64,000 bases of DNA from a virus. A program made the position numbers and the translations under genes. The notes below the pieces were generated by a model. It saw nothing but the letters and a program-made list of their open reading frames with translations. It was not told the DNA's origin and ran no database searches. The stretch lies in IMG/VR virus record IMGVR_UViG_3300022602_000075, positions 1-64,000 of that record; one strand, given 5' to 3'. Positions 29,201-64,000 of this stretch are shown here, piece by piece; positions within the stretch are counted from its first letter, which is position 1; each line of letters opens with the position of its first letter.

Positions 29201-32200
29201 AGAATTCGGCGTATTTTTCAACTCTAGTACCTAAAAACGATGGGCAGACTAGTACTACAAAAGTAGATTCACTTTCAGTAACAGTACCTAGAAACTTTAC
29301 ATCGACCGAAGAAATGGTGCCATATGGTACTATATTCCAAACTCCGCAAGCAGTTGCAATATTCTTAGCCAGTTATGGTGCTTACTTAGAAGCGAATGGT
29401 GCAACATACGAATATCAACTTGGTGCCCTACCAATTAATTGGAATCAAATGATTTCAGAATTCTTGTACTGGGTACAAATTGGTTGGCAGCCGGGCGCAA
29501 TCACTACACTAAATCCTGCTGCTTATGAACTTACAATCAATAGAGAAAATCAGATCGTACAGCCACTAAGCGTACAAGGTGCAAACTTTGTATTAAATCA
29601 AAACTTGTATCCAATCAAGAATGCTGACTTATCAATTATCAGAAATGGTACACAGTTTAGCGTTACTCCTCTAAATCAGGGTGACACTATTAGTTATGGA
29701 CAATTCAACTTGAGTAATTTTGAAAACGCTTGCGTATTCAACAATACTACAATGTTTGGCGACACTATTTGCGATTTAGTAACTGGCTTAAGACAAAACA
29801 GATTATACTTGAGAGGGGCTAAAACTGCAAGTTGGAATGGTACATACACTGCGTCGGGCTTCATTATCAATCAAAATAATGTGGTACAATGGGATCCGGC
29901 AGCCAAGTACACTAAAGGACAAATTGTAAAATACAAAAATCAATACTGGGTCGCTCAAGATATTATACAACCAAGCGAAACATTCCAACAAAAGTATTGG
30001 TTGCTATCAAACTACAACATGATACAAACAGGTTTGTTGCCTAACTCTAGCACTAACTCGCTAGACAGTACATATTACTACAGCAATGAACAGTCTGCAC
30101 TCAATACAGACACTAACTTATTGTGTTACTCATTGATTGGATACAGACAGCGCGATTATGCTGCTATTGCTGATCTAACAGATGTAACACAAGTCAATGT
30201 TTATCAGAATTTGATCAAGACTAAGGGAAGCACTAATGCGGTTAGCGCATTTAAGGGCGCAACTTTACCTCACGGCGGCATAGATTATAACGTATACGAA
30301 AACTGGGCTATTTTGTCTAGCAATTTTGGCGGCGTGTTAAACAATAACTTTGTTCAGTTTAAACTTAACGCAGCAGAATTAAGTGGTAACCCCTTCATTG
30401 TGGGTTTAACTGACGGAGTATCTACTACTGGAGTAGAACAAGAAGTACCTCTTTACTCTTTATACAACTACAATTACAGTTCACCTCCAACCAGCCCTAA
30501 TGTATTACCTACTATAAGCCAATATGTTCCATCTACATTATTCCCTGATGCTGGATATGTGAACTTCAACGACGTTAAAATGTCGTCTTACTTCTATTCT
30601 CAATTGCCTACTGCCGTAAATCAACAAGGAGTAATTATACCTCTTACAAGTTTCTACGTAGGTGATTATGTTTGGTTAGCCAATTACTTAAATCAATGGA
30701 ATGTGTATACTCCAATTTCACTTGGTCAAGTTGTTGCTGTAACAAACAATTTAAATAATACTTGCACTGTAACATTCTCACAGATGCACAATTTAAAACA
30801 ATATGATTTGATCGCCATAACAAACTTTAATAGTGCAGTAAACGGATACTATACGGTTAATAATGTTGTTGACAATTATCAGATTACTATATTGTTGTCG
30901 TTAACTTCAAGTTCTCGTCAATTAATTGGTCAAGGCGTAGGTATGTATCTGTCCCCGCAGCGTGTAACTACACCTTCGCAAATCACAAATCTTCCTTTAG
31001 ATTCTTCTGAGTTTGTTAAGAACACAGTTTGGGTAGATACTAATAATGACGGTGGATGGGCAGTTTACCAAAAGAACATCAACTATCAGTTAGAAGAAGA
31101 AATCACTCAACCGCTCAATGATAGTTTGTCGTTTGGTAGTTCTGTAGTTTACAACAGTAACTTAGGTGGCTACTTAATTGGTGACCCTAATTTAGGAAAC
31201 GTATACAGATATGATCTTAACCAGGGCACGGGCGGATATGACTTATTCCAAACATTAACTCATGCTGCATCGTTTGGTTCTTCTATGGTAAACGAAGGAT
31301 CAATTTATGTAATATCACAACCTACAGGTACTCCAACTGTTTATATCTATACTATCAACAATTCGGTACTATCAGATCAACTAATTTCATACCAGGCAGG
31401 AATCACTGCGCCTAGCGGCGTAACTAATTGGGGTAGCGCATTAGCATTATCCGGTGATACTAATTGGTTGTATATCTCAGACACCGGTCATAATAAAGTT
31501 TATGTTTACAATAAGCAAAATATATTGTTAACTGCTGGCAGTTTTGTGACAGGTGAAACGTACACTATCAACAGCATTGGTACTACAGACTTTACTGCTG
31601 TAGGTGCAATCGAAAATAAAGTAGGAATTACATTTATCGCAACAGGTGCTGGATCAGGTACAGGCACAGCAACTCAATCTACATATAAATCTTCAGCAAT
31701 CATCGATGCTACTGGATTCTTGACCACTGGTGATAACTTTGGATACTCAATCGCAACTGATTACTACGGTGATACTGTTGTGATCGGTGCACCAGATGTT
31801 GACTACAGCACTGATTATCAAAACTGGGGTTCTGCGTATGTATATGAAAGAAGTGTGCAGAATTTCATAGCACCATACACATATCCTCTTAACTCAAATC
31901 CTGCACCATCTTTCCAATTAGCATGGTCTCCGTCAGCAGTACAAGTAAGCGTTAATAGTGTTGCAGTTCAAGCAAGCGAATACTCTATTTCAGGATCTAC
32001 TTTAACATACACCGGTTCTTTGACCGCGGGAGATATCATCAATGTAAGCGGAAATGTATTCACTAAAGTACAAACACTTACTACACAAAACAATCCTCAA
32101 GTAGGAGTGCAGTTTGGTCTATCAGTAGATACAACTGCTCATGCAGGTGAGATTATTGTCGGTGCCCCATTCGAATTAACACAGCAATTAGTAGAAGGTG

Positions 32201-35200
32201 CAGTATACAGATTTACTAACGGTGGTGCAGAGTACGGTCAAGTATATGGCACATCACCAGTAGCAACTACTGCTACTCGCACAATACTGATTAATGGCTT
32301 TGCTGCAACTATACCTTCTGGTGCTAATGCAGCAGTAGCAGCAAACACTATTAATCAAACTAATATTATCAACATTACTGCTAGTGCAACTAGCGACAAT
32401 AAACTAGTTATTAGTTTAACCAATCCTGCTTTAGCACAGGCTAATGAAAAATTACTAGTGACGGCACTAAACAGTTCAGCATTGACTGAATTAGGAGTTA
32501 ATACATACACTCAAACACAAGTTGTGCTATGCCCACATACAGAAGGGCCAACACAATTTGGTACTGTAGTCAAGTTCAATGAGTCGGGATCATTTGTAGC
32601 CAGTGCACCAGTTGGCACTAGATATGAAGATACGACATTTGATGTTGTAGATTATCCTGATCAGGATACAATCTTTGACAACAATACTACACAATTTATT
32701 GAGTCGTTCCCAAATGCTGGCGCAGTTTACATGTTTGATTATTTGGGTAACTACAACGAAACTCTACAAAATCCTGGATCATTTGTATATGCTCAAAGTG
32801 TAAATGCACCAAATCTAACATACGGTCCTCAGCCGCGTTACGGCACTGCTATTGACTTTGTTAGCAATCGAGTTGTAGTTGGCACACCAAATATGTACAA
32901 TTATGACATTAGTGCAACTACACTAACAGCCGGAGTAACATATACTATTGTATTCGTAGGAACAACAGACTTTACTGCAATTGGTGCTGTTTCGAACACG
33001 GTTGGTGTTACATTCGTTGCTACAGGGCCGGCTTCTGGTTCAGGATTTGCTACTGACGGTGATTTAGTAAGTTATGGTCAAGTAATTTCTTACACTAATT
33101 CTGTTGGTCAACAAGACTGGGAAGTTTACAGACAAACTGCACCAATTGTTGATACTGCAAGAATTGGGTACATGCAGATTTTCAGCGCACAAACTAATAA
33201 CACATTAGTAAACTTAGACTACTTTGATCCATTGCAGGACAAGTTATTAGGTGCAGTAGCAGAAAACATTGATGTTATTTCAAACAATGATCCTGCAAGT
33301 TACAATAATGGAAATGTAACTCAACGTGCATTAGTTTGGGGTAAAGAACATTTAGGCAATATTTGGTTTAATACTTCTAATGTTAGATTCGTAAACTATC
33401 ACCAAGATGATGTAGTATATAACAGTAAGTATTGGGGTGCGGTATTCCCTGGTAGTGATGTTGCAGTATATACTTGGGTAGCAAGCAATAACCCACCTGC
33501 AAACTATCAGGGCCCGGGCACACCATATAACACTAACCTATACACGATAGAAACTATATTAAATGCCTCACAATCAGCAGTACCTGTTTATTACTTCTGG
33601 GTAAGAAACACTAGTATTATCTTTAGTGAACAAGGAAAGACTCTATCTGACACCGTGCTGCAATCATATATCAGCAGTCCTCAAAACTCAGGTATAAGTT
33701 ACATTTCTCCAATACTACCTAATGTATTCTCAGTGTATAATTCACAGCAGTACTTGAACGGTAATGATAGTGTGCTGAATGTGGGTTATGCTACTGGTGT
33801 GACTAACGATCAATATCACACTGAATACTCACTCATTAGAGAAAATTATCCTGATGACTTCTTGCCAGGTTTACCAACTCTAGCAAATCCTACCCCAACA
33901 TTACTATATCAAAAATTATTGTATAGTTTGTCAGGCGTAGACGGAATAGGTCAAGTAGTACCAGATCCGTTCTTGCCAGTAGCAGTGCAATCTGGTGTTG
34001 CAGCACGACCAAGACAAAGTTTCTTCTTAGACAGATTCATAGCACTTCAAAATTACATTGAATTTGCAAACAATGTAATGAGCAAGTATCCTATCACTGA
34101 AATCAGAGAAAATGCTACTTACTTGTATGCTAAAGGTCCGTTCTACGACACATCTAATTATTGGGAGTTTATAAACTGGTGGGCACCTGGCTATGATAAT
34201 TCTATCAGATCATCTACAGTAGTACCTTTCTACGCAGATTTGTCAACTTTAAGCGTTGCACCAGGTACTATTGTAAAAGTACAATCTAACGGTGCAGGTA
34301 AATCAGAGTGGTATATCTTAGTAGCTGGAAACGTTTGGAATCGCATAGGGTTACAAAACGGCACAATTCAATTCAAGTCTAGCCTTTGGAATTACAAGGA
34401 TGCAGGATTTGGTTGGGGTAATAACTTCTTTGATACTGCGTCATTCGACACGTATCCTAGTGAAGAAACTTATTGGATAGCAAGAGCATTAACTGAACAG
34501 ATTTATACTAACGAATTGTTGGCTTACAGAAATAATAGTTTGATCTTATTGTTCCAGTATATTCAAAGCGAATCTGTATCTTCGCAAAACTATCTTACTT
34601 GGTTGAACAAGACTTCATTAGTAGATGTTTCACACAACATCAGACAATTGCTTCCTTATGAAAACTATCAGTCTGACAATCAAGATTTCTTAGCTGGATA
34701 CTTAGGAGAAGCATTACCTTACCACGTATTCATTAAAGAGTTTACATATGTATACACTGGTTCTAACACATGGGCCGGTAATGTAATCGACTTTGATTTA
34801 CCAGCACAATATAACACTACAATTGATCAGTTTGTATCACCTCAATTGGTATACAGTAATCCTGATAATGTTTATACATACTCACCAACGAGTCTAATTT
34901 GGCAGCAACCTGAGTACTATCAGTGGTTTACTAATTATGGAATTAGTCTGACAGGTGAAACCAACTACTTGATCGGTGAAATAACTGCTTATTTGGGATT
35001 AGGATCTTCGGTTATTGCAGTAACAAATGCTTCAGGATTCCCATTAAATGGTGTAATCATGATTGGTGAAGAAAAGATTGCATACTCTACTGTAAACCGT
35101 GCAAATAATACTTTAACCAACTTAGTAAGAGGTTACGGTGGTACTACTGTTAGCGTTCACTTCCCTGGCGAAAACATTTATATTGACTTGCCAGCAGTTC

Positions 35201-38200
35201 TAGTATTGAACGGTGGCAGAGGGTACACTAATCCACCTAAAGTAACTGCTTATATTGATACTTCAATTTATCCAGCACCTTCAGTACCTGCTCAATTAGA
35301 AGCAGTTATGAGTTTAGACTCGGTAGTTTCAGTAAATGTTATCGATCCAGGTAATGGATATGCAGTACTCCCACAAATCATTATAGATTACGCTGAGCAA
35401 ATTGTATTTGCAAGCACAAATGTAAATGTACTGTTTAGTACTATTCAGATTCCTACACCTCTCTTACAAACTGGAGACTTAGTAAAATACGAAATGTCTC
35501 CAAACGGACAGGCTATTGGTGGAGTTGAAAACAACCAATGGTACTACATAAACGTACTACAAAGCGCGCCTGCTGTTGTTGTAGCACTTTACACAACTTA
35601 CTTAGATGCAGTAAGTGATACGAACAGAGTATTCTTCTATAATCAAGGCTCGGGAACTGGTCATACTCTGAATTTAGGCGCAAAAGCATCTGCTGTTTCT
35701 ACAGCCGCGCCAATCAGAGAAAACAATATAACATTGAAGTTTGACAGAACTAGTTATAATTCTCAAGTATCAGAATGGACTCCTAATGCATTTTATGGTG
35801 CGTTCTTTACTGGGGATGCATTAAGTCAGTTACAAACTTCAAGTTCTACGCTGCCATTAAGTAGCACTCAGCCTGATATCAATTCTATATTAACTAGCGC
35901 ACAAGGCTGTGTATTTGAAATCGTAGACACTGGGAACATTCAGCAAGTTGAATGGTCTTCTTTTGTACGCACTGTGTCTGAAACTATAGCCTCAACAAAT
36001 GCAATTAGATTAATTCTAAGCAGCAGTACGCTAGAAAATGCTTCAGGTTCTACAGTTGGCATGGTTGAAGGAATGCCGGTACAGTTTAACGGTTTTGTTG
36101 GTTCAAGCGGTATTGTACCAAACACTGTGTACTATGTGAAAGAAGTATTAAGTCTTACAGACTTTACTATTTCAGCAACTTCAGGCGGCAGCACGCTTTC
36201 ATTGAGCAATCAAGTAATAACTGGTGCTGGATTAAATTGCTTAGTTGCACAAGTAACTAATACTGCAACACTGACTATGAACTATCCTGGCATAAGAACT
36301 GCTACTTCGGTCACTGCTAACAGTATTGCAAAACGTGGTTACATAACTGTACCGTTGAATTCAATTGGTACAGGTGGCACAAAGGGTATGTATTCTGGAT
36401 TACCTGTATTCTTTGTAGGGAATGTATTTGGCGGAGTAGTAGCAAATCAAGCATACTATGTCACTACGGTACTAGATAAGCAAAATTTCACAATTTCCAC
36501 TAGCGCAGACCCATACACGGTACAAGTAGAAGCAACTAATAGCAGTACCAATTATGTAACTTTGAATAGTACAACTGGACTTTCAGTTAATGATCCTATT
36601 GTTATTAACGAAATGGTTGTTGAAGGGCAAGCAGCAACTAGTTTTGGTAACATCGTTCCTTCTACAATTTACTATGTAAGTCAAATAATCGATGGTTTTA
36701 ACATAACGATTTCTACTGATTATAATGGTAGTACATTTGTGCTGTCTACAGTTTCATCCACTACTACAGTTACTGCTGGTTCTTTTGTAACAGGAGTTAC
36801 TTATACTATTCTAGATTTAGGAACTACTGATTTTACTTTGATTGGTGCAGCATCTAATACTATTGGAGTAGTATTTGTCGCAACAGGAGCAGGAACTGGT
36901 ACAGGTACTGCAACTTGCCGTTCTTTTGCAACTCTAGTAAGTCAAGCAAATACTGCACTTCTGACTACTTCTATTGGTGACATGACAATCAACTTGTCGC
37001 TACCAGTAAGTCCCGGACAAGTTAATGGTCAGTTGTTTACATTATACAAAACATCACAAGAATATTACCCAATTACATATACAGTTTCTAACGAATTAAC
37101 TGGCTCAATTGTTGCAACTATTGCAGGGGTTAATTATGCTGCTATATCTGCTACATATGGCACAGCAAATTTCTATGTAAACATGCCATTAAGAGTAAGT
37201 CACAATATTGGTAACTTGGTAACAGCAACTACTTACTATGTGACTAGCATTGGTGCAATAACAGTAGAAGTAACAGCAACTGCATCTTCTACAAATAGAC
37301 TTACTTGCAACGATACTTCTGTACTCTACGCTAACATGCCAATCGTCTTTAGTGGTACAGGGTTAGGTGGAATCACAATTAGTCAAACATATTATGTAAA
37401 AACAATAATAGATTCAACACACTTTACTATAAGCACTACACCGAGCGGTACTGTATTAACTCTTACCAGTGACACTGGTTCTATGACAGGCACTGGAGAT
37501 GCGTATATAACACTATCGACTTCGTTGGGAGGTGGCAACGTTTCGTTATCAAGTGACTATGGCCCAGTTACATATACACAGACACCTGTCACTCTGCCTG
37601 ATATAGCAGTTAATTACTTAGTAGGTGGCTACTCTGTAACTATCGTAGCCGGGGGGCAAGGAATGGCTACAACTAATGTACTAACAGTAAGCGGTACTGA
37701 AGTAGGTGGCGTATCCCCTGCCAATGACGTTACTATTGAAGTGAATGGAGTAGATAGTCAAGGATCTATAGTAAGTTTAACAGTCACGGGAACAGTACCT
37801 GCTGATTCACAAAGCAAGTATTACTTAAAAGTAACAGGAACAAATACATTTGAAGTGTATGCTGATCCGTTAATGGCAGTACCTGTAACAGGAATTGGAT
37901 TCCCATACACGGGAGTAAAATCAACTACTGCAACTACAGTTACTGCTTCCAATGACAGAGTTACTGTAGCAGATTCTACAATATTTGCAGTAAATGATTC
38001 AGTAGTATTCACTGGAGAAGTTTTCACTACAGATATTGTATTGGGTCAGACTTATTATATTAAGGCAAAACCAACATCAACTACTGTAACTATTTCTACT
38101 CTGCCTGGGGGTACTACATTAGATATAACTGCAAATGCATCTGGTTCTATGACTATGGCTGCTTTGGGTTCGTTTGCGTTCTTGTATGAACCATTCTATT

Positions 38201-41200
38201 TTAACCCAAGCATTGTTAAGTTCAGCAATCAACTGTATCGCTGCATAGTTAGCAATAATGATTCAGAATTTGTTTATGGCAAGTGGGAACTATTAGATTC
38301 GGGTGATCGTAGAATCAACGCACTAGACAGAATTGTTGGATACTATAAGCCTACAGTCAATATGCCTAGTTTCACGTACCATGAGACTTCACCGCTTCAG
38401 CCAGGAGTTTCAAGTGTTGACTTCTCACAATTATTGACTGGTACTACTTACCCTAACAGCACATACTTAGGTAATCCGTTCCAACCATCGCAACAGTTAC
38501 CGCTGAATGTAAAACTGCAAGATCAACCATTTATTGCAACTCTGCCAGCAGTATATGATGTACAAGGCTCAGCATTTACTTCAGGATTCGGCCCAGAAGA
38601 ACTAGTACCTGGTATTGTATCTGACAATCTATCTATGATAGTTAATACGCTACCGGGTAGTAATTGGGATCCTGCTCAATATGCACATGACGGTTATAAT
38701 GTAGTATCTCTACAATTTACACCTGCTTATTCAACCCAAACTGTTTACAGTTTTGATAGAGCAGTTCAAGTGCCCGCACAAGTAGCAGTATTTGTGATTA
38801 ATGGTTCTACTCAATTGTCTACTAGCATCTATAATAGCATAGATTATACTGTTGATTGGGTAAACAGTACTGTAATATTGAATAGTCCTCTAGCAGCATC
38901 TAATACTCTAAGAATAGATGTGTACGAAGTAGGCAATGGATACCAATTAGTCAAGTCAAGTACTAAGCGTGACCCTATTATACTAGATCCAGTTACTGGA
39001 TTCAATGGAATTCCATTAGATTGCAACTATGCCGGTAATATCAATAACGGCAACGGAATAGTAAGACCGGGTACGGCACCTATACAAACCAATGCTACTG
39101 CTACTATAAGCGCAACAAATTCTATTGTAGTAGACAATGTATCAAGTTTCATATTAAACAGTCCAATTACATTCCAAGGTAGCACTTTTGGAAACATTGT
39201 AGCAGGTACTACTTATTATGTAAAAACAATCAGCACTGTAACAGACAGTATTACGGTGTCTACAACATATGATATTTCAACCGGTATAGCAGGATCTACA
39301 TTCCACTTAAGTGACGCGGTGGGTAGTATGGTCTGCATCATCGAAACTGGCAACGGAGTATTCTGGAGTCCTCCAGTCGTATATCACAATGGTAATAAAC
39401 TAGTTTTGGGAACTATAAATTTTGCGATTTCAACTTCAGCAAGCACAGGATACATAACATGTAACTCTACTTCTGGATTAATAGCAAACACACCTATTAA
39501 GTTTAGCAATACAATGTTTGGTGGCGTAACTCCACAAACAACTTATTACATTTCTCATATTTTGGATTCTTATAAATTTAGTATATCTGCTACTCCTGGT
39601 GGAGCACCATTAACATTGACCGATGCAGTTGGTGGAGCATCGTTTATTACAAACGACTATGCTGCTGCGCTTTCGGCAGACGGTTTTACAGCCAAATTAG
39701 TGTTTGCTTCACTTTATGATCCTTCAGTAGATTATATTACCTATACACTGTTTGGAGAAACAGTTCCTCAATATAGCTATACTATACCTGAAACTCAAGT
39801 CTTTTCAAATATCACAGGATCTTCATTTACTTTAACTAATTATGTAGTTGAAGATAATCCTACTAACGCTATAGTAGAAGTAAATGGCGTAAGACAAACG
39901 GCTGCACAGTACACTATCAGCAGTTTATCAAACACCATAACATTCAATACTCCTCCACCGATCGGAAGTACAGTTGCAGTAACATCATATAACTTGACTG
40001 ATAATCAATACTTTAATACTCAATATGGTATTAGTGGTTCTTCTCTGTCTGCATCTACTACAGTTATAGTATCTGCTACAACAAACACAGTATCAACTTA
40101 TGACCAAAACGGCACAGTTGGATATGACACTCAATTGTACGCAGAAAATCTAAACACGCTAACACTAGATACTGGATATAACACTTCAGTGTTCACAATA
40201 GGTCAAGTGATTGTGTTCTCTGCTCCAACTATCGGCGGTATAGTAGCCGGTAAAAACTATTACATAGCACAAATAATAGATTCTTCTACGTTTACTATTT
40301 CGGAACTATTAGGTGGCGCACCAATTGCGGTAACTACTGCTACGGGAACAATGACTGGAAATCTAAACGGCATCACAGTAGCCGCGATTACTAATATCAG
40401 TAATGTCATATCAGATCCTCTTGCTACTACAACAGTAACTGGAACATCTTCTATAACTAACTTGATTACTTGTGCTTCAACTACTAACTTTGCTTTAAAT
40501 CAAACTGTGCAGTTTGAGGCTAGTGTTATTTCCGCTACATCAATTGTTATAGGGGCAACATATAGAATTGAATCATTAGGTACAACTGATTTTACAACTA
40601 TAGGTGCTGCTACAAATGCGGTTGGGGTAATCTTTATTGCTACAGGAGTGGGTACTGGTACAGGCACTGCACTATTGGCTACATTTGGCAACATAGATTT
40701 GTTGGGCCAAGTGTACTTTGTAAAAACTAAAGACAGTTCTACAACATTCTCTATTTCGGATCAAGCAGGTAACACAATTACATTAGGTACTGATTCCGGT
40801 TCGATAAAAGCAATAGTCGGTGGACAACCTACTATTAGAATAACAACTGGCGTACTTAATACTTTTGAAGACAATACTCTTGTTAGAATTGATGGAACAT
40901 TGGGTTCTACACAATTAAATAACCAGACGTTCTACGCTAAAGTAATTACAACTACTCAGTTTGACATTTACTCACAACCATACAGTCCTGCGTTTGGGGC
41001 TATTAACTCTCCAGTTACTAATGTATCTACTTGGCTTGGCGGTGGATATGCATGGAGAGATGGGCTATTCACTATAATTGATACCAAAGCAACTGCGACC
41101 GCACCGAATGGACTAATCACTGTTAATTCGACTACAGAGTTAATATTGGGTACCCCAGTATACTTCACTGTTTCGGGAACAGCACTTGGTTCAACCATTA

Positions 41201-42147
41201 TGGGAGGATTAATCGCAGGCAGAGAGTACTTTGTAAATCAAATTGTTCCTGGAACTGGTTTCTATGTCACCGAAACTAGAGGTGGCAACAATCTAGCACT
41301 TACTTCTGATACAGGTGGTGTCAACGTAACACAATGGCAACAAACTAATGTTGACCGTCTATGGGTAACAGTAAATGGGTATCGAGTTCCTTCTTCATCA
41401 CTGCGTTTGAATCCAGGAAATGATCTAAGCATACTAGCAAGTATTAATCCAGGTGACGAAGTAATTATTACTAGTATGGTGCCTTCGGCTACCCCAAATC
41501 AAATGACTTACTACATGAATGTAAATCAACTTGGGGTACCGGTAGTTTACAATGCTAACATGTCTAAAACTTGGTTAGTACGTGGATTAGAAAGTTTAGA
41601 TACAGTAATTTACGTCAACGATGTATCACAAATTACAGAAACTATTGTCCAAAACAATATTGCACCTGCACCAGTTGGAGGAGTAATCAGTATAGGATTG
41701 AATGTAGACAAGAGAACACTAACTAGCGTAACAGTTTACAACAACACAACTGGTCAAACTGTTCCAAGTAGCGCATATAGCGTTCAAATAGTTGACGCAT
41801 CTCCTACTCTGCTAATAACAGGGGGAGTCACTACAGGAAACTACTTGACGATAACTTCAATTCAGGGTAACTTAATCTATATTAACGGAGAACAAATTGT
41901 ATTTGGAGTAGTAGATTTTGCCACTAACACACTTACCCAATTGCAACGTGGAGCAAATGGCACTGCTACACAGACATTAATCGCTCCGTATACTCCTGTA
42001 CTAGGATTGCTGCCCGGCGATCGATTATCTGATACTTACTATAATCAAACTTGGAATCCAATCCCAGGAATCTACAATCTTACTGAGGGCGACCCGCTAC
42101 AGATAGCAGATACTGCCCCTGCTACTTTCTTAAATACGGGGAAATAA
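23299..42147 (+). CDS. Giant baseplate / tail-associated structural protein (6282 aa, gp7-like position)
   Basis: Uninterrupted 18.8-kb ORF after the gp6-like gene; LPEIFQT..N..FL.ATLDQL start; several families of internal repeats. Confidence 0.8.
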   Translation: MAKVIRTLDFLPEIFQTPSNQQFLSATLDQLVNPPDLQKLQGFVGNRFGYGVNANDYYVTEPDATRTNYQLDPGVVFTKPGTSTATDFISYPGILNAINAAGGLANNNSRLFNSQFYSWDSFTNLDPLINFNQYYWLPEGPPAVTVAAATVFSAEDYVVTAEANGYNISVLGSDTGSINPTITLLRGGVYNFYVNQSTQFWIQGLPGVQGIDPTNPNQSVRQIYGVGNNGAETGIVTFTVPPANAQQQYILPGNNLVSLVSNIPYENLNGQLVSTIKNIDGVTSLNGMTVMFYDTGTPVNTNFYKIAYVGDPNNPTISLSVVSAIPVNQNINVVYGNTYGGLTFYLDNSNNIEQLPYISAPLDTLYYQDGSDPTRVGMIRLIESNVTNQLDINTQVLGQKNFTSTNGVVFTNGLKVQFNGDVVPSSYLTGQYYVQGVGTAIELLPVSDFIVSEPFTGDVLTPWDSTNWDIGNFSDTLYIPTYPDYITIARNSINRNPWSRSNRWFHIDVINATAQYNNDPSIATTFARQDNKAARPIIEFYPNLELFNYGSVGVSAVDFIDFRTTDCLNLVAGQPVYYPDVDVYTAYNANVFNPPVPTVGFTTPSPMGSINVANMRAVAISPTGVYVAVGYGTANSALYSVSTDGINWTTPASMNGVVVPAASMNSVTVNSAGLFVAVGGAGYPYYATSTDGINWTTPALMNGSSVYTQMRSVTVNSSGLFVAVGSDGSTYPLYATSTDGTNWTTPAIMNGSTSFAAMQAVTVNSSGLFVAVGYDGNQYPVYATSVDGSTWTTPTPMNGTTNPVRMLAVTVNSSGLFVAIGTDINTGYPVYSTSTTGSNWITPVAMTGSASGIRMTAVSTNYYGLFVAVGYDQNTVDGVAYRPVYSTSLDGSTWTAPAFMNNSIDPANIYGVAVDTIGGFVAVGDSGVSGVVSKSVIQLPSTSTTVTVPVASVTGTLEVGMYINDSQNILPPNTQITSITNHSGVLYIEVSWPNPTVLSGIIGVSLVADPSSNTNYALFPGARVIFAADPAQKAKIFVVNFSTVTQGSPPVITLAEAPDGQIVAGNVAAVIRGYNNQGYSFWYNGTAWVQAQQKITNNQAPLFDVFDSNGISFGNPAYYVGTSFKGSRLFSYAIGTGLADKVLGFPLSYSSVNNIGDISFDVSFNSDTFTYVNSSSPVTENVNTGFVYNTNSLTDHTRLLGWQTAVGPSVQYQVFEFNYVRNYVVPNNAFLLDVAPVASDVEPWPVLEVYVNNVLQPSTNYTVTTTSDSTTVVINIPNQITNTLVQILVLSDQVSKYAFYQIPINLSNNPFNTDITVTNVGDIRRQYASIFNNCPNTTGHVFGSNNYRDLGNLVPYGNVIIQNSASLALPATFLRNLDFNIFDALAYNSKKYVEYKNLIVYTVNSYPFDQRYDPAYVLNTAIDLITAAKDSSQSFFWSDMIPAKAPYASNAYTFKSNLDRTVYPLTQTYNFKTANYNGVLVYLSRTISGLTITKQLVINQDYTVSATAPSLEITIQLLAGDVVTINEYNQTYGSYVPNTPTKLGLYPAFIPEVVLDTGYQQPTYFIKGHDGSYNKLYGDYIPETDTLVDFRDQALLEFEKRVYNNLKLSNTIPIQAYEVTPGFFRTTDYSYDEWLEIYTPGFLNWVGQNKLDYKQQYYNSYNQYTWNYKKTTNKVDNSVIDIGYWRGVYSYFYDTTTPNTTPWEMLGYKNEPSWWTDRYGPAPYTSNNLVLWGDLAAGLDWNNGNPVVIPKAVRNGLLKVLPVDSQGNLISPFQSVVANYYTPSFEANWVVGDDGPVEFSYRRSSSWPFDLMRILALTKPAEFFNLGAWVDNYKYSEEFNQYLVGGRSHLVPNEIPVYGSGTPVTSYINWVVDYRKQYGVDATTTITTLINNLDVRLVYRLAGFSDQNLLNFYIQSTNPNSNNSSLLIPNESYQVLLYSNPPYSVLQYSSVIVQITNQGQYAVFGNSQNSAYFSTLVPKNDGQTSTTKVDSLSVTVPRNFTSTEEMVPYGTIFQTPQAVAIFLASYGAYLEANGATYEYQLGALPINWNQMISEFLYWVQIGWQPGAITTLNPAAYELTINRENQIVQPLSVQGANFVLNQNLYPIKNADLSIIRNGTQFSVTPLNQGDTISYGQFNLSNFENACVFNNTTMFGDTICDLVTGLRQNRLYLRGAKTASWNGTYTASGFIINQNNVVQWDPAAKYTKGQIVKYKNQYWVAQDIIQPSETFQQKYWLLSNYNMIQTGLLPNSSTNSLDSTYYYSNEQSALNTDTNLLCYSLIGYRQRDYAAIADLTDVTQVNVYQNLIKTKGSTNAVSAFKGATLPHGGIDYNVYENWAILSSNFGGVLNNNFVQFKLNAAELSGNPFIVGLTDGVSTTGVEQEVPLYSLYNYNYSSPPTSPNVLPTISQYVPSTLFPDAGYVNFNDVKMSSYFYSQLPTAVNQQGVIIPLTSFYVGDYVWLANYLNQWNVYTPISLGQVVAVTNNLNNTCTVTFSQMHNLKQYDLIAITNFNSAVNGYYTVNNVVDNYQITILLSLTSSSRQLIGQGVGMYLSPQRVTTPSQITNLPLDSSEFVKNTVWVDTNNDGGWAVYQKNINYQLEEEITQPLNDSLSFGSSVVYNSNLGGYLIGDPNLGNVYRYDLNQGTGGYDLFQTLTHAASFGSSMVNEGSIYVISQPTGTPTVYIYTINNSVLSDQLISYQAGITAPSGVTNWGSALALSGDTNWLYISDTGHNKVYVYNKQNILLTAGSFVTGETYTINSIGTTDFTAVGAIENKVGITFIATGAGSGTGTATQSTYKSSAIIDATGFLTTGDNFGYSIATDYYGDTVVIGAPDVDYSTDYQNWGSAYVYERSVQNFIAPYTYPLNSNPAPSFQLAWSPSAVQVSVNSVAVQASEYSISGSTLTYTGSLTAGDIINVSGNVFTKVQTLTTQNNPQVGVQFGLSVDTTAHAGEIIVGAPFELTQQLVEGAVYRFTNGGAEYGQVYGTSPVATTATRTILINGFAATIPSGANAAVAANTINQTNIINITASATSDNKLVISLTNPALAQANEKLLVTALNSSALTELGVNTYTQTQVVLCPHTEGPTQFGTVVKFNESGSFVASAPVGTRYEDTTFDVVDYPDQDTIFDNNTTQFIESFPNAGAVYMFDYLGNYNETLQNPGSFVYAQSVNAPNLTYGPQPRYGTAIDFVSNRVVVGTPNMYNYDISATTLTAGVTYTIVFVGTTDFTAIGAVSNTVGVTFVATGPASGSGFATDGDLVSYGQVISYTNSVGQQDWEVYRQTAPIVDTARIGYMQIFSAQTNNTLVNLDYFDPLQDKLLGAVAENIDVISNNDPASYNNGNVTQRALVWGKEHLGNIWFNTSNVRFVNYHQDDVVYNSKYWGAVFPGSDVAVYTWVASNNPPANYQGPGTPYNTNLYTIETILNASQSAVPVYYFWVRNTSIIFSEQGKTLSDTVLQSYISSPQNSGISYISPILPNVFSVYNSQQYLNGNDSVLNVGYATGVTNDQYHTEYSLIRENYPDDFLPGLPTLANPTPTLLYQKLLYSLSGVDGIGQVVPDPFLPVAVQSGVAARPRQSFFLDRFIALQNYIEFANNVMSKYPITEIRENATYLYAKGPFYDTSNYWEFINWWAPGYDNSIRSSTVVPFYADLSTLSVAPGTIVKVQSNGAGKSEWYILVAGNVWNRIGLQNGTIQFKSSLWNYKDAGFGWGNNFFDTASFDTYPSEETYWIARALTEQIYTNELLAYRNNSLILLFQYIQSESVSSQNYLTWLNKTSLVDVSHNIRQLLPYENYQSDNQDFLAGYLGEALPYHVFIKEFTYVYTGSNTWAGNVIDFDLPAQYNTTIDQFVSPQLVYSNPDNVYTYSPTSLIWQQPEYYQWFTNYGISLTGETNYLIGEITAYLGLGSSVIAVTNASGFPLNGVIMIGEEKIAYSTVNRANNTLTNLVRGYGGTTVSVHFPGENIYIDLPAVLVLNGGRGYTNPPKVTAYIDTSIYPAPSVPAQLEAVMSLDSVVSVNVIDPGNGYAVLPQIIIDYAEQIVFASTNVNVLFSTIQIPTPLLQTGDLVKYEMSPNGQAIGGVENNQWYYINVLQSAPAVVVALYTTYLDAVSDTNRVFFYNQGSGTGHTLNLGAKASAVSTAAPIRENNITLKFDRTSYNSQVSEWTPNAFYGAFFTGDALSQLQTSSSTLPLSSTQPDINSILTSAQGCVFEIVDTGNIQQVEWSSFVRTVSETIASTNAIRLILSSSTLENASGSTVGMVEGMPVQFNGFVGSSGIVPNTVYYVKEVLSLTDFTISATSGGSTLSLSNQVITGAGLNCLVAQVTNTATLTMNYPGIRTATSVTANSIAKRGYITVPLNSIGTGGTKGMYSGLPVFFVGNVFGGVVANQAYYVTTVLDKQNFTISTSADPYTVQVEATNSSTNYVTLNSTTGLSVNDPIVINEMVVEGQAATSFGNIVPSTIYYVSQIIDGFNITISTDYNGSTFVLSTVSSTTTVTAGSFVTGVTYTILDLGTTDFTLIGAASNTIGVVFVATGAGTGTGTATCRSFATLVSQANTALLTTSIGDMTINLSLPVSPGQVNGQLFTLYKTSQEYYPITYTVSNELTGSIVATIAGVNYAAISATYGTANFYVNMPLRVSHNIGNLVTATTYYVTSIGAITVEVTATASSTNRLTCNDTSVLYANMPIVFSGTGLGGITISQTYYVKTIIDSTHFTISTTPSGTVLTLTSDTGSMTGTGDAYITLSTSLGGGNVSLSSDYGPVTYTQTPVTLPDIAVNYLVGGYSVTIVAGGQGMATTNVLTVSGTEVGGVSPANDVTIEVNGVDSQGSIVSLTVTGTVPADSQSKYYLKVTGTNTFEVYADPLMAVPVTGIGFPYTGVKSTTATTVTASNDRVTVADSTIFAVNDSVVFTGEVFTTDIVLGQTYYIKAKPTSTTVTISTLPGGTTLDITANASGSMTMAALGSFAFLYEPFYFNPSIVKFSNQLYRCIVSNNDSEFVYGKWELLDSGDRRINALDRIVGYYKPTVNMPSFTYHETSPLQPGVSSVDFSQLLTGTTYPNSTYLGNPFQPSQQLPLNVKLQDQPFIATLPAVYDVQGSAFTSGFGPEELVPGIVSDNLSMIVNTLPGSNWDPAQYAHDGYNVVSLQFTPAYSTQTVYSFDRAVQVPAQVAVFVINGSTQLSTSIYNSIDYTVDWVNSTVILNSPLAASNTLRIDVYEVGNGYQLVKSSTKRDPIILDPVTGFNGIPLDCNYAGNINNGNGIVRPGTAPIQTNATATISATNSIVVDNVSSFILNSPITFQGSTFGNIVAGTTYYVKTISTVTDSITVSTTYDISTGIAGSTFHLSDAVGSMVCIIETGNGVFWSPPVVYHNGNKLVLGTINFAISTSASTGYITCNSTSGLIANTPIKFSNTMFGGVTPQTTYYISHILDSYKFSISATPGGAPLTLTDAVGGASFITNDYAAALSADGFTAKLVFASLYDPSVDYITYTLFGETVPQYSYTIPETQVFSNITGSSFTLTNYVVEDNPTNAIVEVNGVRQTAAQYTISSLSNTITFNTPPPIGSTVAVTSYNLTDNQYFNTQYGISGSSLSASTTVIVSATTNTVSTYDQNGTVGYDTQLYAENLNTLTLDTGYNTSVFTIGQVIVFSAPTIGGIVAGKNYYIAQIIDSSTFTISELLGGAPIAVTTATGTMTGNLNGITVAAITNISNVISDPLATTTVTGTSSITNLITCASTTNFALNQTVQFEASVISATSIVIGATYRIESLGTTDFTTIGAATNAVGVIFIATGVGTGTGTALLATFGNIDLLGQVYFVKTKDSSTTFSISDQAGNTITLGTDSGSIKAIVGGQPTIRITTGVLNTFEDNTLVRIDGTLGSTQLNNQTFYAKVITTTQFDIYSQPYSPAFGAINSPVTNVSTWLGGGYAWRDGLFTIIDTKATATAPNGLITVNSTTELILGTPVYFTVSGTALGSTIMGGLIAGREYFVNQIVPGTGFYVTETRGGNNLALTSDTGGVNVTQWQQTNVDRLWVTVNGYRVPSSSLRLNPGNDLSILASINPGDEVIITSMVPSATPNQMTYYMNVNQLGVPVVYNANMSKTWLVRGLESLDTVIYVNDVSQITETIVQNNIAPAPVGGVISIGLNVDKRTLTSVTVYNNTTGQTVPSSAYSVQIVDASPTLLITGGVTTGNYLTITSIQGNLIYINGEQIVFGVVDFATNTLTQLQRGANGTATQTLIAPYTPVLGLLPGDRLSDTYYNQTWNPIPGIYNLTEGDPLQIADTAPATFLNTGK
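25090..26100 (+). repeat. About 6-7 tandem ~50-aa beta-propeller-like repeats in the giant protein
   Basis: Repeated STDG.NWTTPA.MNG....M..VTVNSSGLFVAVG unit with Asp-box-like SxDGxxW; boundaries approximate. Confidence 0.8.
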
Positions 42148-52014: not shown

Positions 52015-52066
52015 AGATTCATAAGTTGATGTTGTTGATTCACTCTTACTAAAGGTACATACTTAT

Positions 52067-61254: not shown

Positions 61255-64000
61255 ATGAGTAACAAGTCAGGGCAAGGGGCACTAATCAAAAGCCCCTACG
61301 AAAAAACACACTTTGAAACACCTCAACAACTAGATGAGTTTGTAAAGTGCTGCGACCCTGATACCGGTTATCTTTATTTCATGGACAATTTTTTCTTCAT
61401 ACAACATCCTACTAAGGGTGGTATGAACTATCATCCATGGGATTATCAAAAACGTTTAATACACACATATCACAATTACAGATATAGTATATCGCTCATG
61501 CCCAGACAGTCTGGTAAGTGTTTTGGAATAAATACTACAGTTAAAATAAAAAATATTCACACCGGTAAGGTTGAAGAAATAACTATAGGAAAATTTTATG
61601 AACGATTTAGTAACTTGTCTAATTTGCTCAACAGAGATGAAGGAATTGCACTCTCATCTATTCAGAAAACACAATATGACAGTGACCAAATACAAAGAAG
61701 TCTATCCGAATGCACCAACTCGGTGCCAGCAGTTACTGGAAGCACAATCAAAAAGGGTATCGGGTTCTGGAAATCCTGCATACCAACATGGAGGGAAACT
61801 TTCTCCGTTTTCTCCAAAATTTATTCACGGGGATATATCGGAGCGAACTCAAATCAAAGCCGAACAGTCCCGAAAAGAAAATCAATCACATACTACTACT
61901 CTTGCATATTGGATGAAAGTTACGAATCAAGACGAAGAACAAGCGATTCGTATGCTGACAGATCGGCAAACTACTTTTTCTTTGAAGAAATGCTTAGAAA
62001 AATACGGGAAAGCCAATGGGTTGTTAAGATGGCAAGAACGGCAGCAAAAGTGGTCAAAGAATTTCAAAAAACAAAACTATTCAAATGTCTCACAAAAACT
62101 ATTCCATTTAATAATGGAACATTATGCGTCAGATCAAGTATATTTTGCGACCTTGGAACGGTCGGATATGTTAGACTACCAAAACAAGGAATATCGGCTT
62201 TTATTGGATTCAGGCAAGACTGTTCTACCGGATTTCATCAATATAGCAACGAGAAAAATTATAGAATTCGACGGGATTTATTGGCATGGGCAACATATGG
62301 CGAACCCGCAACGGGAACTAGAAAGAGAACAGCAGATTATTCAAAGTGGATACCAGTTACTAAGAGTTGCCGAGGAAAGATACAAGAAAGATCCTCAACA
62401 AGTGCTTCAAGAATGTCTGAACTTTCTGAATCAGTAGAAAGAAAATTTATAGAGTCATACGAAATAACCGATTATGAAATAACCACTGACACAGGATGGA
62501 AACCAATAACACACCTCCATCGTACTATTCCGTACAATGTTTGGGAAATTAAAACTGTAACAGGATTAATTTTGCAATGCGCCGACACTCATATTTTGTT
62601 TGATGGCTCAATGAATCAAGTTTTTGCAAAAGACTTAACTATTGGTTCGCATATTCATACTGTTAACGGAATAGAAAAAATTAAACATATTAGAGAAACA
62701 AATAATATTGAAAATATGTTCGATTTAACTATTAGAGATGAAAATCACAGATTTTATTCAAATGGTATTTTAAGTCATAATTCTACAAGTGCTGCCGGAT
62801 ACTTGTTGTGGTACGCCATGTTCAACCCGGACTCTACAATTCTGATAGCAGCGCACAAGTACACTGGCGCTCAGGAAATCATGCAGCGTATTAGATATGC
62901 TTATGAAAACTGCCCTAACCACATTAAAGCAGGGGTGACAACTTATAACAAAGGCAGTTTAGACTTTGAAAACGGTAGTCGTATTGTTTCGGCAACAACT
63001 ACCGAAAACACAGGTCGTGGTATGTCTATTACGCTTCTTTACTTAGACGAGTTCGCATTCGTAAGACCTACTATTGCTGAACAATTCTGGACTTCTATTA
63101 CACCTACACTATCAACTGGTGGTAAAGCAATCATTACTTCTACACCAAATAGCGATGAAGATCAATTTGCTCTTATTTGGAAGGGTGCTAATAAAACAGA
63201 AGACGAATATGGTAACGTAACAGAAGTTGGCGTAAACGGCTTCAAAGCATACCGTTCACACTGGTCTGAACAGCCCGGCAGAGACGAAAAATGGGCTGAA
63301 GAAATTAGATCACAATTGGGACAAGATCGCTTCAACCGTGAAATGGAATGCGAATTTATCATCGCCGATGAAACACTGATCAATCCAAACACTCTAATTA
63401 TGCTAGAGGGAACAGAACCTTCTAATAGAATGGGTCAAGTTAGATGGTATAAAGAGCCAACCAAAGGAAATTTATATGTAGTAGGGCTAGACCCAAGTTT
63501 AGGTACAGGTGGAGATCCTGCTGCTATAGAGATTTTTGAAGCAAACACTACGACGCAAATTGGTGAATGGAAGCATAACAAGACTAACATTCCCAGTCAA
63601 GTTAAGTTGCTAGCAGAAATAAACAGATATATTGTAGAAAAGACTAACGAACCAAACAATCTATATTATTCACTAGAAAACAACTCTATAGGTGAAGCTG
63701 CGATAGTTTCTCTGAACGAGTACGGTGAAGCCAATATTCCCGGGATATTCATTAGCGAACCGGGCAAAAAGCGCAGGGGTTTTAACACCACACACAAGAA
63801 CAAATTAGCCGCATGCGCTAAGTTTAAAACTCTGCTAGAAAGCAAGAAGTTAAAAGTTTATAGTCGCAGTCTGATATCTGAATTAAAGACTTTTGTGGCT
63901 TCAGGTGGCAGTTATGCCGCTAAAGTAGGCGACACAGACGATCTTATTATGGCTACACTCCTAGTCGTTAGAATTTTACAGCAGTTGGGCGATTATCACG
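61255..64000 (+). CDS. terL: Terminase large subunit (T4 gp17-like) with intein; partial, runs off window end
   Basis: ATG 61255 after TAAATA. Walker A PRQSGK|STS (split by the intein), Walker B LLYLDEFAF, ITSTPN coupling motif, nuclease motifs VGLDP and DTDDL. Frame read codon by codon through 62820 without a stop. Confidence 0.95.
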   Translation, partial: MSNKSGQGALIKSPYEKTHFETPQQLDEFVKCCDPDTGYLYFMDNFFFIQHPTKGGMNYHPWDYQKRLIHTYHNYRYSISLMPRQSGKCFGINTTVKIKNIHTGKVEEITIGKFYERFSNLSNLLNRDEGIALSSIQKTQYDSDQIQRSLSECTNSVPAVTGSTIKKGIGFWKSCIPTWRETFSVFSKIYSRGYIGANSNQSRTVPKRKSITYYYSCILDESYESRRRTSDSYADRSANYFFFEEMLRKIRESQWVVKMARTAAKVVKEFQKTKLFKCLTKTIPFNNGTLCVRSSIFCDLGTVGYVRLPKQGISAFIGFRQDCSTGFHQYSNEKNYRIRRDLLAWATYGEPATGTRKRTADYSKWIPVTKSCRGKIQERSSTSASRMSELSESVERKFIESYEITDYEITTDTGWKPITHLHRTIPYNVWEIKTVTGLILQCADTHILFDGSMNQVFAKDLTIGSHIHTVNGIEKIKHIRETNNIENMFDLTIRDENHRFYSNGILSHNSTSAAGYLLWYAMFNPDSTILIAAHKYTGAQEIMQRIRYAYENCPNHIKAGVTTYNKGSLDFENGSRIVSATTTENTGRGMSITLLYLDEFAFVRPTIAEQFWTSITPTLSTGGKAIITSTPNSDEDQFALIWKGANKTEDEYGNVTEVGVNGFKAYRSHWSEQPGRDEKWAEEIRSQLGQDRFNREMECEFIIADETLINPNTLIMLEGTEPSNRMGQVRWYKEPTKGNLYVVGLDPSLGTGGDPAAIEIFEANTTTQIGEWKHNKTNIPSQVKLLAEINRYIVEKTNEPNNLYYSLENNSIGEAAIVSLNEYGEANIPGIFISEPGKKRRGFNTTHKNKLAACAKFKTLLESKKLKVYSRSLISELKTFVASGGSYAAKVGDTDDLIMATLLVVRILQQLGDYH
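61519..62781 (+). mobile_element. Intein (421 aa, contiguous) inserted at the terminase Walker A GK|S
   Basis: Block A CFGINTTV, block B LQCADTHIL, block F MFDLTI..ENHRFYSNG, block G ILSHN followed by Ser+1. Removing it restores PRQSGKSTSAAGYLLW. Confidence 0.93.
61598..62437 (+). CDS. Vsr/DUF559-type homing endonuclease nested in the +1 frame inside the intein
   Basis: N-terminal CxxC...H...H zinc finger, GSGNP.Y motif, C-terminal PDF...IIEFDGIYWH...GYQLLRV; AGGA RBS 7 nt upstream; TAAATA at 61529. Confidence 0.88.
   Translation: MNDLVTCLICSTEMKELHSHLFRKHNMTVTKYKEVYPNAPTRCQQLLEAQSKRVSGSGNPAYQHGGKLSPFSPKFIHGDISERTQIKAEQSRKENQSHTTTLAYWMKVTNQDEEQAIRMLTDRQTTFSLKKCLEKYGKANGLLRWQERQQKWSKNFKKQNYSNVSQKLFHLIMEHYASDQVYFATLERSDMLDYQNKEYRLLLDSGKTVLPDFINIATRKIIEFDGIYWHGQHMANPQRELEREQQIIQSGYQLLRVAEERYKKDPQQVLQECLNFLNQ

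Follow-up and report, generated by a model that had tools for sequence, protein, structure and literature searches.

How can one gene remain readable from end to end when a second, complete gene is written across its middle in another frame? The question is raised by the large terminase gene (terL) of an uncultured freshwater jumbo-type phage, found in the first 64,000 bases (the window) of the 72,019-base IMG/VR record IMGVR_UViG_3300022602_000075, whose completeness is estimated at 21%. The terL open reading frame (ORF) begins at ATG 61255 and extends to the end of the window, giving 915 amino acids with the 3' end still open. Its exteins match the Pfam Terminase_6N/6C and PHROG large-terminase families, and the nearest proteins are TerLs of jumbo phages: the PA5oct group, with 51% identity, and also Atu_ph07 and Phosso. 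The N-extein (61255..61518, 88 aa, on the + strand like the features below unless stated) ends in the Walker A sequence 'RQSGK', and the C-extein (62782..63999) opens with 'STSAAG', which completes Walker A, and runs off the window. Between the Lys and the Ser of this motif sits an intein of 421 aa (61519..62781), and inside the intein, in the +1 frame relative to terL, lies a 279-aa ORF for a putative homing endonuclease (61598..62437). The initial annotation, made from the letters of the window, had described this arrangement, with no stop from ATG 61255 through the intein; on translation we recovered the same intein length and boundaries, the same nuclease coordinates and frame, and zero stops in the terL frame.

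We consider it probable that this contiguous intein splices in cis and carries, at the atypical split site, an overprinted and separately translated homing endonuclease of the Vsr-like/EDxHD type.

Openness of the terminase frame

Across the intein (61519-62781) the terL frame contains no stop codon, the third frame contains 36, and the nuclease frame contains 16, all of them outside the nuclease ORF. Over the 280 codons of the nuclease gene itself, the counts are 0 in the terL frame and 21 in the third frame. The annotation had read this overlap as non-random and had pointed to synonymous shuffling of the nuclease, a check of the assembly and a survey of related inteins as ways of judging it, frequent stop-free shuffles being what would count against it. 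When synonymous codons were permuted 200,000 times, the mean number of terL-frame stops was 15.6, the minimum was 5, and no shuffle was stop-free (0/200,000); the analytic probability of zero stops is 7e-10.

The same avoidance can be seen codon by codon. A terL stop is created wherever a nuclease codon ending in T stands before a codon starting with AA, AG or GA. At the 51 such risk sites where a synonymous T is available, the codon ends in C 16 times (a number that the annotation had put, by hand, at about 16), in A 18 times, in G 17 times and in T never. T-ending codons thus account for 0/51 choices at risk sites compared with 72/144 elsewhere (Fisher p 5e-13). As a background we used the same relative frame in the 34 other window ORFs of at least 120 aa, among which endonucleases were not singled out: it contains 1806 stops in 18,875 codons, about one in 10, and its longest open run is 97 codons, compared with 280 in the nuclease gene. 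The assembly is sound: independent contigs show the same layout, and contigs from three other DNA sequencing runs, none of which spans the whole stretch alone, jointly cover 61400-62900 without an indel, which excludes misassembly. These and all other runs were inspected as Logan contigs only, and stretches left uncovered in a run are given no weight.

To place the locus among its relatives, we surveyed DNA of the intein family in IMG/VR (25 loci) and in JGI metagenomes (the best 80 of 309 relatives). We refer to the studied locus as WIN, to surveyed loci by L-numbers, to finds of a protein search by P-numbers and to other sequencing runs by X-numbers. Scans of viral contigs based on the nuclease gave 3 contigs each, and scans with an intein alignment did better. 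From the IMG/VR set, loci on the same contigs as others were dropped (L089, L090, L100 and L101, equivalent to L004, L006, L003 and L005), as were those cut by contig ends (L097, L098, L109, L113) and those in which the N-terminal intein piece (IntN) was not found (L110, L111). The 100 pooled loci reduce to 81 distinct intein spans: 8 dual-coded and contiguous, 6 contiguous and short, 10 that are short and either contain stops or have their halves in differing frames, 47 in which the gene is fractured and the nuclease intact, and 10 cut by contig ends. Classes were assigned automatically from tblastn matches and extrapolated ends, and a few of the 'different frame' calls may be boundary errors. 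Both L097 and L098 are open over all the upstream codons available, 130 and 55 respectively.

All eight dual-coded loci (WIN, L006, L091, L092, L096, L116, L119 and L126) have 0 stops and a full, intact nuclease ORF. Pooled, they use a third-position T at 0/497 risk sites compared with 493/1080 other sites, and the probability of finding no stop ranges from 3e-6 to 1e-11 per locus. The 47 fractured relatives carry a homologous nuclease, mostly in the same +1 geometry, with 24-75 stops (median 46) in the nuclease -1 frame; their third-position T usage is 2164/4598 at risk sites and 3510/6824 elsewhere. Stop counts among the nuclease-bearing loci (8 + 47) are therefore bimodal, with none between 1 and 23. 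The eight loci fall into deep lineages. Comparing WIN, L006 and the L091-96 group, we found just 51-62% identity between the nuclease proteins and differences at 53-59% of third positions, so recent common descent does not account for the open state; L116, L119 and L126 represent further lineages.

Overall, these comparisons show that selection holds the terL frame open. The shuffles, the absence of T from risk sites and the conservation in eight loci, set against 47 fractured relatives at the same GK/S site, all bear out the annotation's idea of a non-random overlap. A likely reason lies in the host gene: TerL is essential and the whole gene has a single start, so that any T-ending nuclease codon before AA, AG or GA would truncate it, and every such codon has been lost to selection.

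Probable splicing of a contiguous precursor

The intein runs from the Cys of 'CFGINT' (61519) to the end of 'ILSHN' (62781) and is followed by Ser. Its splicing residues, Cys1, the penultimate His and terminal Asn of 'SHN' and the +1 Ser, fall in columns that are invariant in 8/8 aligned sequences and make up a class 1 signature. An N-terminal piece of about 32 aa (61519..61614) contains block A and corresponds by homology to the IntN of atypically split relatives; the homologous IntN ORFs of L005 and L104 end soon after window position 61614. The C-terminal piece, of about 112 aa (62446..62781), contains the block B His in 'CADTH' (62578-62592), has invariant columns and terminates in 'HRFYSNGILSHN'. 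We modelled the whole intein with AlphaFold2 (AF2) and, as the mean pLDDT (the per-residue confidence score of AF2) was 42.6, used the model only to contrast the two ends with the spacer between them. Residues 1-32 have pLDDT 70-91 and residues 310-407 have 69-86. Compared with solved inteins by VIA-align, these two modelled ends gave a best Z of 10.5 over 134 residues (rmsd 4.0, 2cw8), and 28/29 of the top rows, all with Z of at least 5, were inteins, hedgehog or BIL domains. The C-terminal piece matched chain 6dsl_B (Z 8.3), the C half of Cat, a consensus TerL intein of the atypically split kind. We model both ends as one Hint fold, and the conserved catalytic residues, in an essential host gene, suggest that the intein splices.

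In the mechanism that we propose, ribosomes starting at ATG 61255 would translate through the whole intein. The first ~32 and last ~112 intein residues would make the Hint splicing domain, and the ~277 residues between them would be an unstructured spacer, a by-product of the nuclease frame. The precursor would most likely splice in cis to give mature TerL. An internal Shine-Dalgarno sequence and ATG (61587-61600) would start separate translation of the 279-aa nuclease in the +1 frame, and the probable role of this enzyme is to cut alleles of co-infecting phages that lack the intein or the nuclease, with the result that the element is copied into them. Consistent with this, the extein-intein-extein frame is uninterrupted, with 0 stops over 61255-63999 and the same continuity in seven other distinct loci. 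In a split intein, the IntN frame ends in a stop and the C-terminal piece (IntC) has its own start; this division into two ORFs is absent from the window and present in L005, L104 and others. Contiguity may plausibly be favoured because it needs a single start codon, fixes the stoichiometry at 1:1 and lets the intein assemble within one molecule.

Several observations weigh against cis-splicing of a contiguous precursor. Atypically split relatives, namely gp110/gp109 of Atu_ph07 and the ten short split forms, evidently splice in trans, which means that contiguity is not mechanistically required. An in-frame ATG at 62413, or a GTG, homologous to the IntC start persists, and some internal initiation from it is conceivable. 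The Pfam Intein_splicing match to the last 36 intein residues is weak (E 2.6e-4, 21.3 bits against a cut-off of 35.8), and the last 14 residues are poorly modelled by AF2. The RNA-library run X16 yielded one contig (6/30 bins), which represents a deletion allele described below and gives no evidence for transcription of the window allele. Finally, part of the evidence for conservation, the further open full-length forms P0003 (97% identical), P0007 and P0009 (42% and 35% over the intein), is at the protein level only, from a search that covered proteins of 503-1602 aa and from which 8/70 finds were examined; that size range biases such finds towards open frames.

The best surviving alternative, which we regard as improbable, is that the locus functions as a split intein: IntC and the C-extein would be made from ATG 62413 and would splice in trans, the open frame being incidental or serving, for example, to avoid polarity. 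This codon (62413..62415) is a latent split point, homologous, by comparison of the 3' junctions, to the IntC starts of L104 and L005, and relatives with stops do exist and must trans-splice. However, when terL contains no stop, every N-terminal product continues into IntC and gives a contiguous precursor anyway. The homologous position in L006 is a GTG, with no clear Shine-Dalgarno sequence before it. Moreover, the complete lack of T at 497 risk sites in the eight loci, compared with 47% in fractured genes, shows that the open frame is itself the object of selection.

The overprinted spacer and the nested nuclease

If the precursor is contiguous, as we favour, does the spacer contribute anything to the intein beyond being translated? 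We think it very unlikely that this is dual coding of two proteins, with the terL-frame spacer (residues 33-309, 61615..62445) acting as a functional intein domain. The spacer is always translated, and its length is constant, most full forms having inteins of 421-422 aa, a constancy that the nuclease protein explains. Its sequence is a different matter: between WIN and L006, amino acid identity over the overlap is 31% in the terL frame and 35% in the non-coding third frame. The spacer is modelled at pLDDT 21-35, a Pfam scan of it in the terL frame gave zero matches, and it is largely or wholly missing from six contiguous alleles. The stretch between blocks A and B is therefore as free of recognisable motifs as the annotation had found it. 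Nucleotide differences between WIN and L006 in the overlap fall on nuclease codon positions 3, 1 and 2 in the proportion 149/91/61 of 280, whereas in the C-terminal intein part it is the terL third position that varies most. Because of this codon-position pattern, a terL-frame identity no better than that of the third frame and the low spacer pLDDT, the sequences identify the nuclease as the selected protein; selection in the terL frame over the overlap acts on openness alone and not on amino acid sequence.

The nuclease gene has the signals expected of an independent unit. An in-frame TAG (61586-61588) lies upstream, followed by a Shine-Dalgarno-like AGGAAA (61587-61592), a spacer and the ATG at 61598; by inspection, this start region (61587..61600) falls inside the intein codons for 'IGKFY', and the ORF ends with TAG. 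In L006, L091, L092 and L096 the start junction is AGGAG plus ATG. Pfam recognises a Ros/MucR zinc finger at aa 2-42 (ROS_MUCR, 29.5 bits, cut-off 25.4) and DUF559 at aa 211-277 (E 4e-7, above cut-off). A PDB search with a profile of 11 homologues returned 3r3p (E 2.1e-4), the DUF559 structure 3hrl (0.0096) and 1vsr (0.022); 3r3p is the catalytic domain of I-Bth0305I, and 1vsr is Vsr itself. Foldseek with the nuclease model (mean pLDDT 69) gave zero matches at E <= 0.001. Its best results were all weak and had the three structures of the profile search at the top: 3r3p reached E 3.5e-3 with a target TM of 0.68, 1vsr also ranked, and there was 2jsp, matching the zinc finger with a probability of 0.95 over 42 columns (E 0.65). 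As the structural matches are modest, we base the assignment to a family on Pfam and the profile search. The homologues share 34 invariant columns across 11 sequences, down to 26% identity. These features mark a real gene, with its own start signals, under purifying selection and of the Vsr-like/EDxHD family; its product would be translated separately and would cleave empty alleles.

Might the nuclease ORF instead be a decaying relic, with the intein frame alone of any importance? Deletion alleles that retain a remnant of 41-50 aa are what this would predict. Against it, the ORF is intact in 8/8 dual-coded loci, substitutions are ordered position 3 > 1 > 2, 34 columns are invariant in 11 homologues, the Shine-Dalgarno sequence and ATG are conserved, and terL genes that have diverged carry the element at 100% identity. 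We give a relic as little credence as a functional spacer. Chance, a compositional artefact, misassembly or an RNA intron, in favour of which nothing was found, can be dismissed as having a negligible probability in view of the shuffles, the analytic probability, the 21 third-frame stops, the independent assemblies and the contigs of other runs. For an intron in particular, Rfam families searched over 61000-63200 (E up to 1) produced two chance-level matches and zero intron families. Both assembled DNA contigs and a DNA run also contain a 687-nt skip, which makes it a DNA deletion and not RNA splicing.

Allelic series, mobility and known inteins

The locus belongs to a series of alleles. Atu_ph07 TerL is encoded by adjacent genes, gp110 and gp109, split at the same site, with an IntN of 40-odd residues and without a nuclease. 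L005 is a classical fractured gene, in which IntN stops, a Vsr-like nuclease (frameshifted in this case) follows, and IntC has its own ATG. L104 and most fractured loci share the geometry of the window: the nuclease starts, in the +1 frame, at an ATG 79 nt beyond Cys1, the nuclease TAG falls inside the codons for a conserved 'VERKF' of IntC, and the IntC start codon is homologous to the in-frame ATG at 62413. Short forms include the contiguous mini-inteins L140, L150 and L184 and the split forms L141, L148, L165, L167 and L183, which have 1-3 stops. The frame is kept in every contiguous short allele (L004, L003, L099, L140, L150 and L184, and the proteins P0006, P0008 and P0010). The atypically split TerL inteins AceL-TerL, GOS-TerL and the consensus Cat-TerL occupy the same Walker A site and likewise have an N piece of ~25-40 aa and a long C piece; they consist of two polypeptides, whereas the pieces in the window are joined by a 277-aa translated spacer. 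The annotation had suggested an intermediate to or from such inteins, and the locus is indeed allelic to atypically split and to fractured terL.

Several alleles bear on mobility. Between WIN and L004 the intein parts are identical at 576/576 nt, identity in the exteins on either side being 77% and 84%, and L004 differs by a clean in-frame deletion of 687 nt within the nuclease gene (61710..62396, the segment missing from alleles of the L004 and L003 type). A joint that skips 687 nt also occurs in the DNA run X10 and in the RNA-library run X16. Such alleles keep the 41-50 aa remnant, and the DNA run X10 contains both the full and the 687-nt-deleted form. L003 has a mosaic make-up, seen over its positions 231-809: in the splicing parts it shares 99-100% identity with the L091/L092 type, and in the nuclease remnant 97% with the L004 type and only 56% with L092. 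A contig from run X3 joins a window-type nuclease 5' part to an L092-type IntN at 61582, which is 16 nt short of the ATG. Two intein backbones thus carry the nuclease cassette, in full or deleted form, with a 5' boundary ~16 nt before the nuclease ATG. Intein-free alleles exist as well; in a contig from run X8 the N-extein passes straight into 'STSAAGYLLW'. Among close relatives of terL, 77/80 have N- and C-extein matches that meet exactly at the intein site, the exceptions being L006, L007 and L079, the last with a gap that reflects a short N match.

An identical element in diverged terL genes, empty alleles and a sporadic distribution mark the intein, on comparative grounds, as mobile and recently transferred. 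The sporadic distribution and the identical element are also indirect evidence that the nuclease may cleave the empty allele. The mosaic alleles suggest that the nuclease cassette moves independently of the intein, and together the data point to two mobile units, one nested in the other: terL harbours the intein, which in turn harbours a nuclease cassette. This picture agrees with the 2009 proposal that an endonuclease integrates within an intein gene (PMC2677866).

Which way the series has run was addressed with unrooted trees. In a quick tree of 54 nuclease proteins, from which L005 was left out owing to its frameshift, the 8 dual-coded genes lie on one side of a branch (SH-aLRT 67), nested in a 23-row clade (support 99) together with 15 fractured genes; in a careful 11-row tree the dual-coded branch has support 93/96. 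Under a midpoint root, a single change from fractured to contiguous would be favoured. Several old losses of the open frame are also possible, since a single mutation breaks it. We raise as a tentative and rather doubtful idea that gene fracture is reversible, the contiguous dual-coded inteins descending from a fractured terL that was re-fused by purging stops from the nuclease -1 frame.

The annotation had proposed an undescribed third architecture. This does not stand: out-of-frame and antisense nucleases within contiguous inteins are already reported in two bioRxiv preprints (10.1101/2025.01.02.630785; 10.64898/2026.09.14.751524), both of which cite Gorbalenya 1998. The actinobacteriophage survey of Gosselin, Arsenault and Gogarten (10.1101/2025.01.02.630785) describes antisense LAGLIDADG, antisense VSR-like and same-strand, frame-3 endonuclease VII-like genes, the last 'within the HEN region'. 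Like the window intein, these are contiguous and often in terL, with a separate nuclease ORF and a structureless in-frame translation; invasion by a free-standing nuclease, horizontal transfer and a VSR-like/EDxHD type (3R3P match) also feature in that account. The differences are that its VSR-like nucleases are antisense, whereas the Vsr-like gene of the window is same-strand, +1 and equipped with a Ros-type finger, and that the window nuclease lies between blocks A and B at the atypical split site, not within the HEN region like the actinobacteriophage same-strand case. Stop-avoidance statistics and an allelic series to fractured forms are given here and were not found in the main-text sections of that preprint, its supplements falling outside the comparison.

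The cyanobacterial dnaX intein of Phillips, DeSimone and Gogarten (10.64898/2026.09.14.751524) carries a LAGLIDADG gene in the +2 frame, for which those authors present a frame-specific selection analysis. It resembles the window in its overlapping ORFs, in purifying selection on the nuclease frame with a relaxed intein frame over the overlap, and in the coexistence of full, mini and empty alleles. It differs in its cellular host gene, its LAGLIDADG nuclease and its canonical insertion position (10.64898/2026.09.14.751524). The fractured genes of Dassa et al. 2009 (PMC2677866), in which split-intein halves flank a free-standing Vsr-like or GIY-YIG endonuclease, include a Lake Gatun terminase 'fractured at an unusual point'. 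These share with the window the intein family, the site, the nuclease family and the overlap of the nuclease 3' end with the IntC start, and L005, L104 and 45 further surveyed loci are of this kind. Their IntN frame contains 24-75 stops and they consist of two ORFs, whereas the window has zero stops and one ORF; in the parts of the 2009 article compared here, the Figure 5 model has no overprinted contiguous state (PMC2677866).

The class of architecture is therefore known, and the locus does not establish a new principle. What is new is the type of nuclease, its strand and frame, its position, the allelic series leading to fractured and split TerL inteins, and the complete purging of stops set against a matched fractured control. 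In the literature we found no contiguous TerL intein with a same-strand Vsr-like nuclease overprinted at its atypical split site, though supplementary VSR-like cluster tables of the 2025 preprint, outside that search, might bear on the point. The locus shows that where one gene has to keep its frame open, the synonymous codons of another can be dictated by it, with 0/497 risk sites and a matched natural control. The gene-breaking model of 2009 lacked a contiguous counterpart, which this locus provides. Within one intein family there are an empty site, a mini-intein, a contiguous intein with an overprinted nuclease, in-frame deletion remnants, a fractured form with a nuclease and a split form without one, which makes the order of events testable. 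A two-tier parasite is indicated, in which a nuclease cassette moves between intein backbones. If the precursor does splice, the atypical split site of TerL inteins would naturally tolerate an unstructured insert of 277 residues, a property relevant to protein engineering.

The survey also brought to light variants of the arrangement. In the fractured loci L107/L108 (1343-2848) and L103/L112 the nuclease is in the IntN frame (offset 0), unlike the +1 overlap, and in L107 one in-frame stop (1439) parts IntN from the nuclease. L110 and L111 (2297-2983) contain an IntC-like piece in one ORF after an N-terminal extension of ~80 aa, and neither IntN nor a nuclease was found upstream of it. Relatives of the intein occur in the P-loop of non-terminase ATPases (L132, L141, L165, L166 and L190; P0015, P0018 and P0045), whose exteins end in '...NGTGK' or '...ENGAGK' and which carry Pfam PF02463 (SMC/SbcC-type); the common Walker A site suggests extein switching. 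A second terL intein site, at 63348/63349 ('REME|CEF'), is empty in the window and in L091 and is occupied by a contiguous mini-intein in L003. In L096, P0003 and P0007 the ORF stops ~30 residues into an intein at this second site, which looks fractured at an atypical point; one terL can thus be contiguous at one site and fractured at the other.

Elsewhere in the window, a single ORF of 6282 aa (23299-42147, +) encodes a giant phage protein. Two pairs of opposite-strand ORFs of 289-431 aa overlap almost completely, at 52049-53128 (-) with 52067-53167 (+) and at 53219-54088 (-) with 53240-54535 (+).

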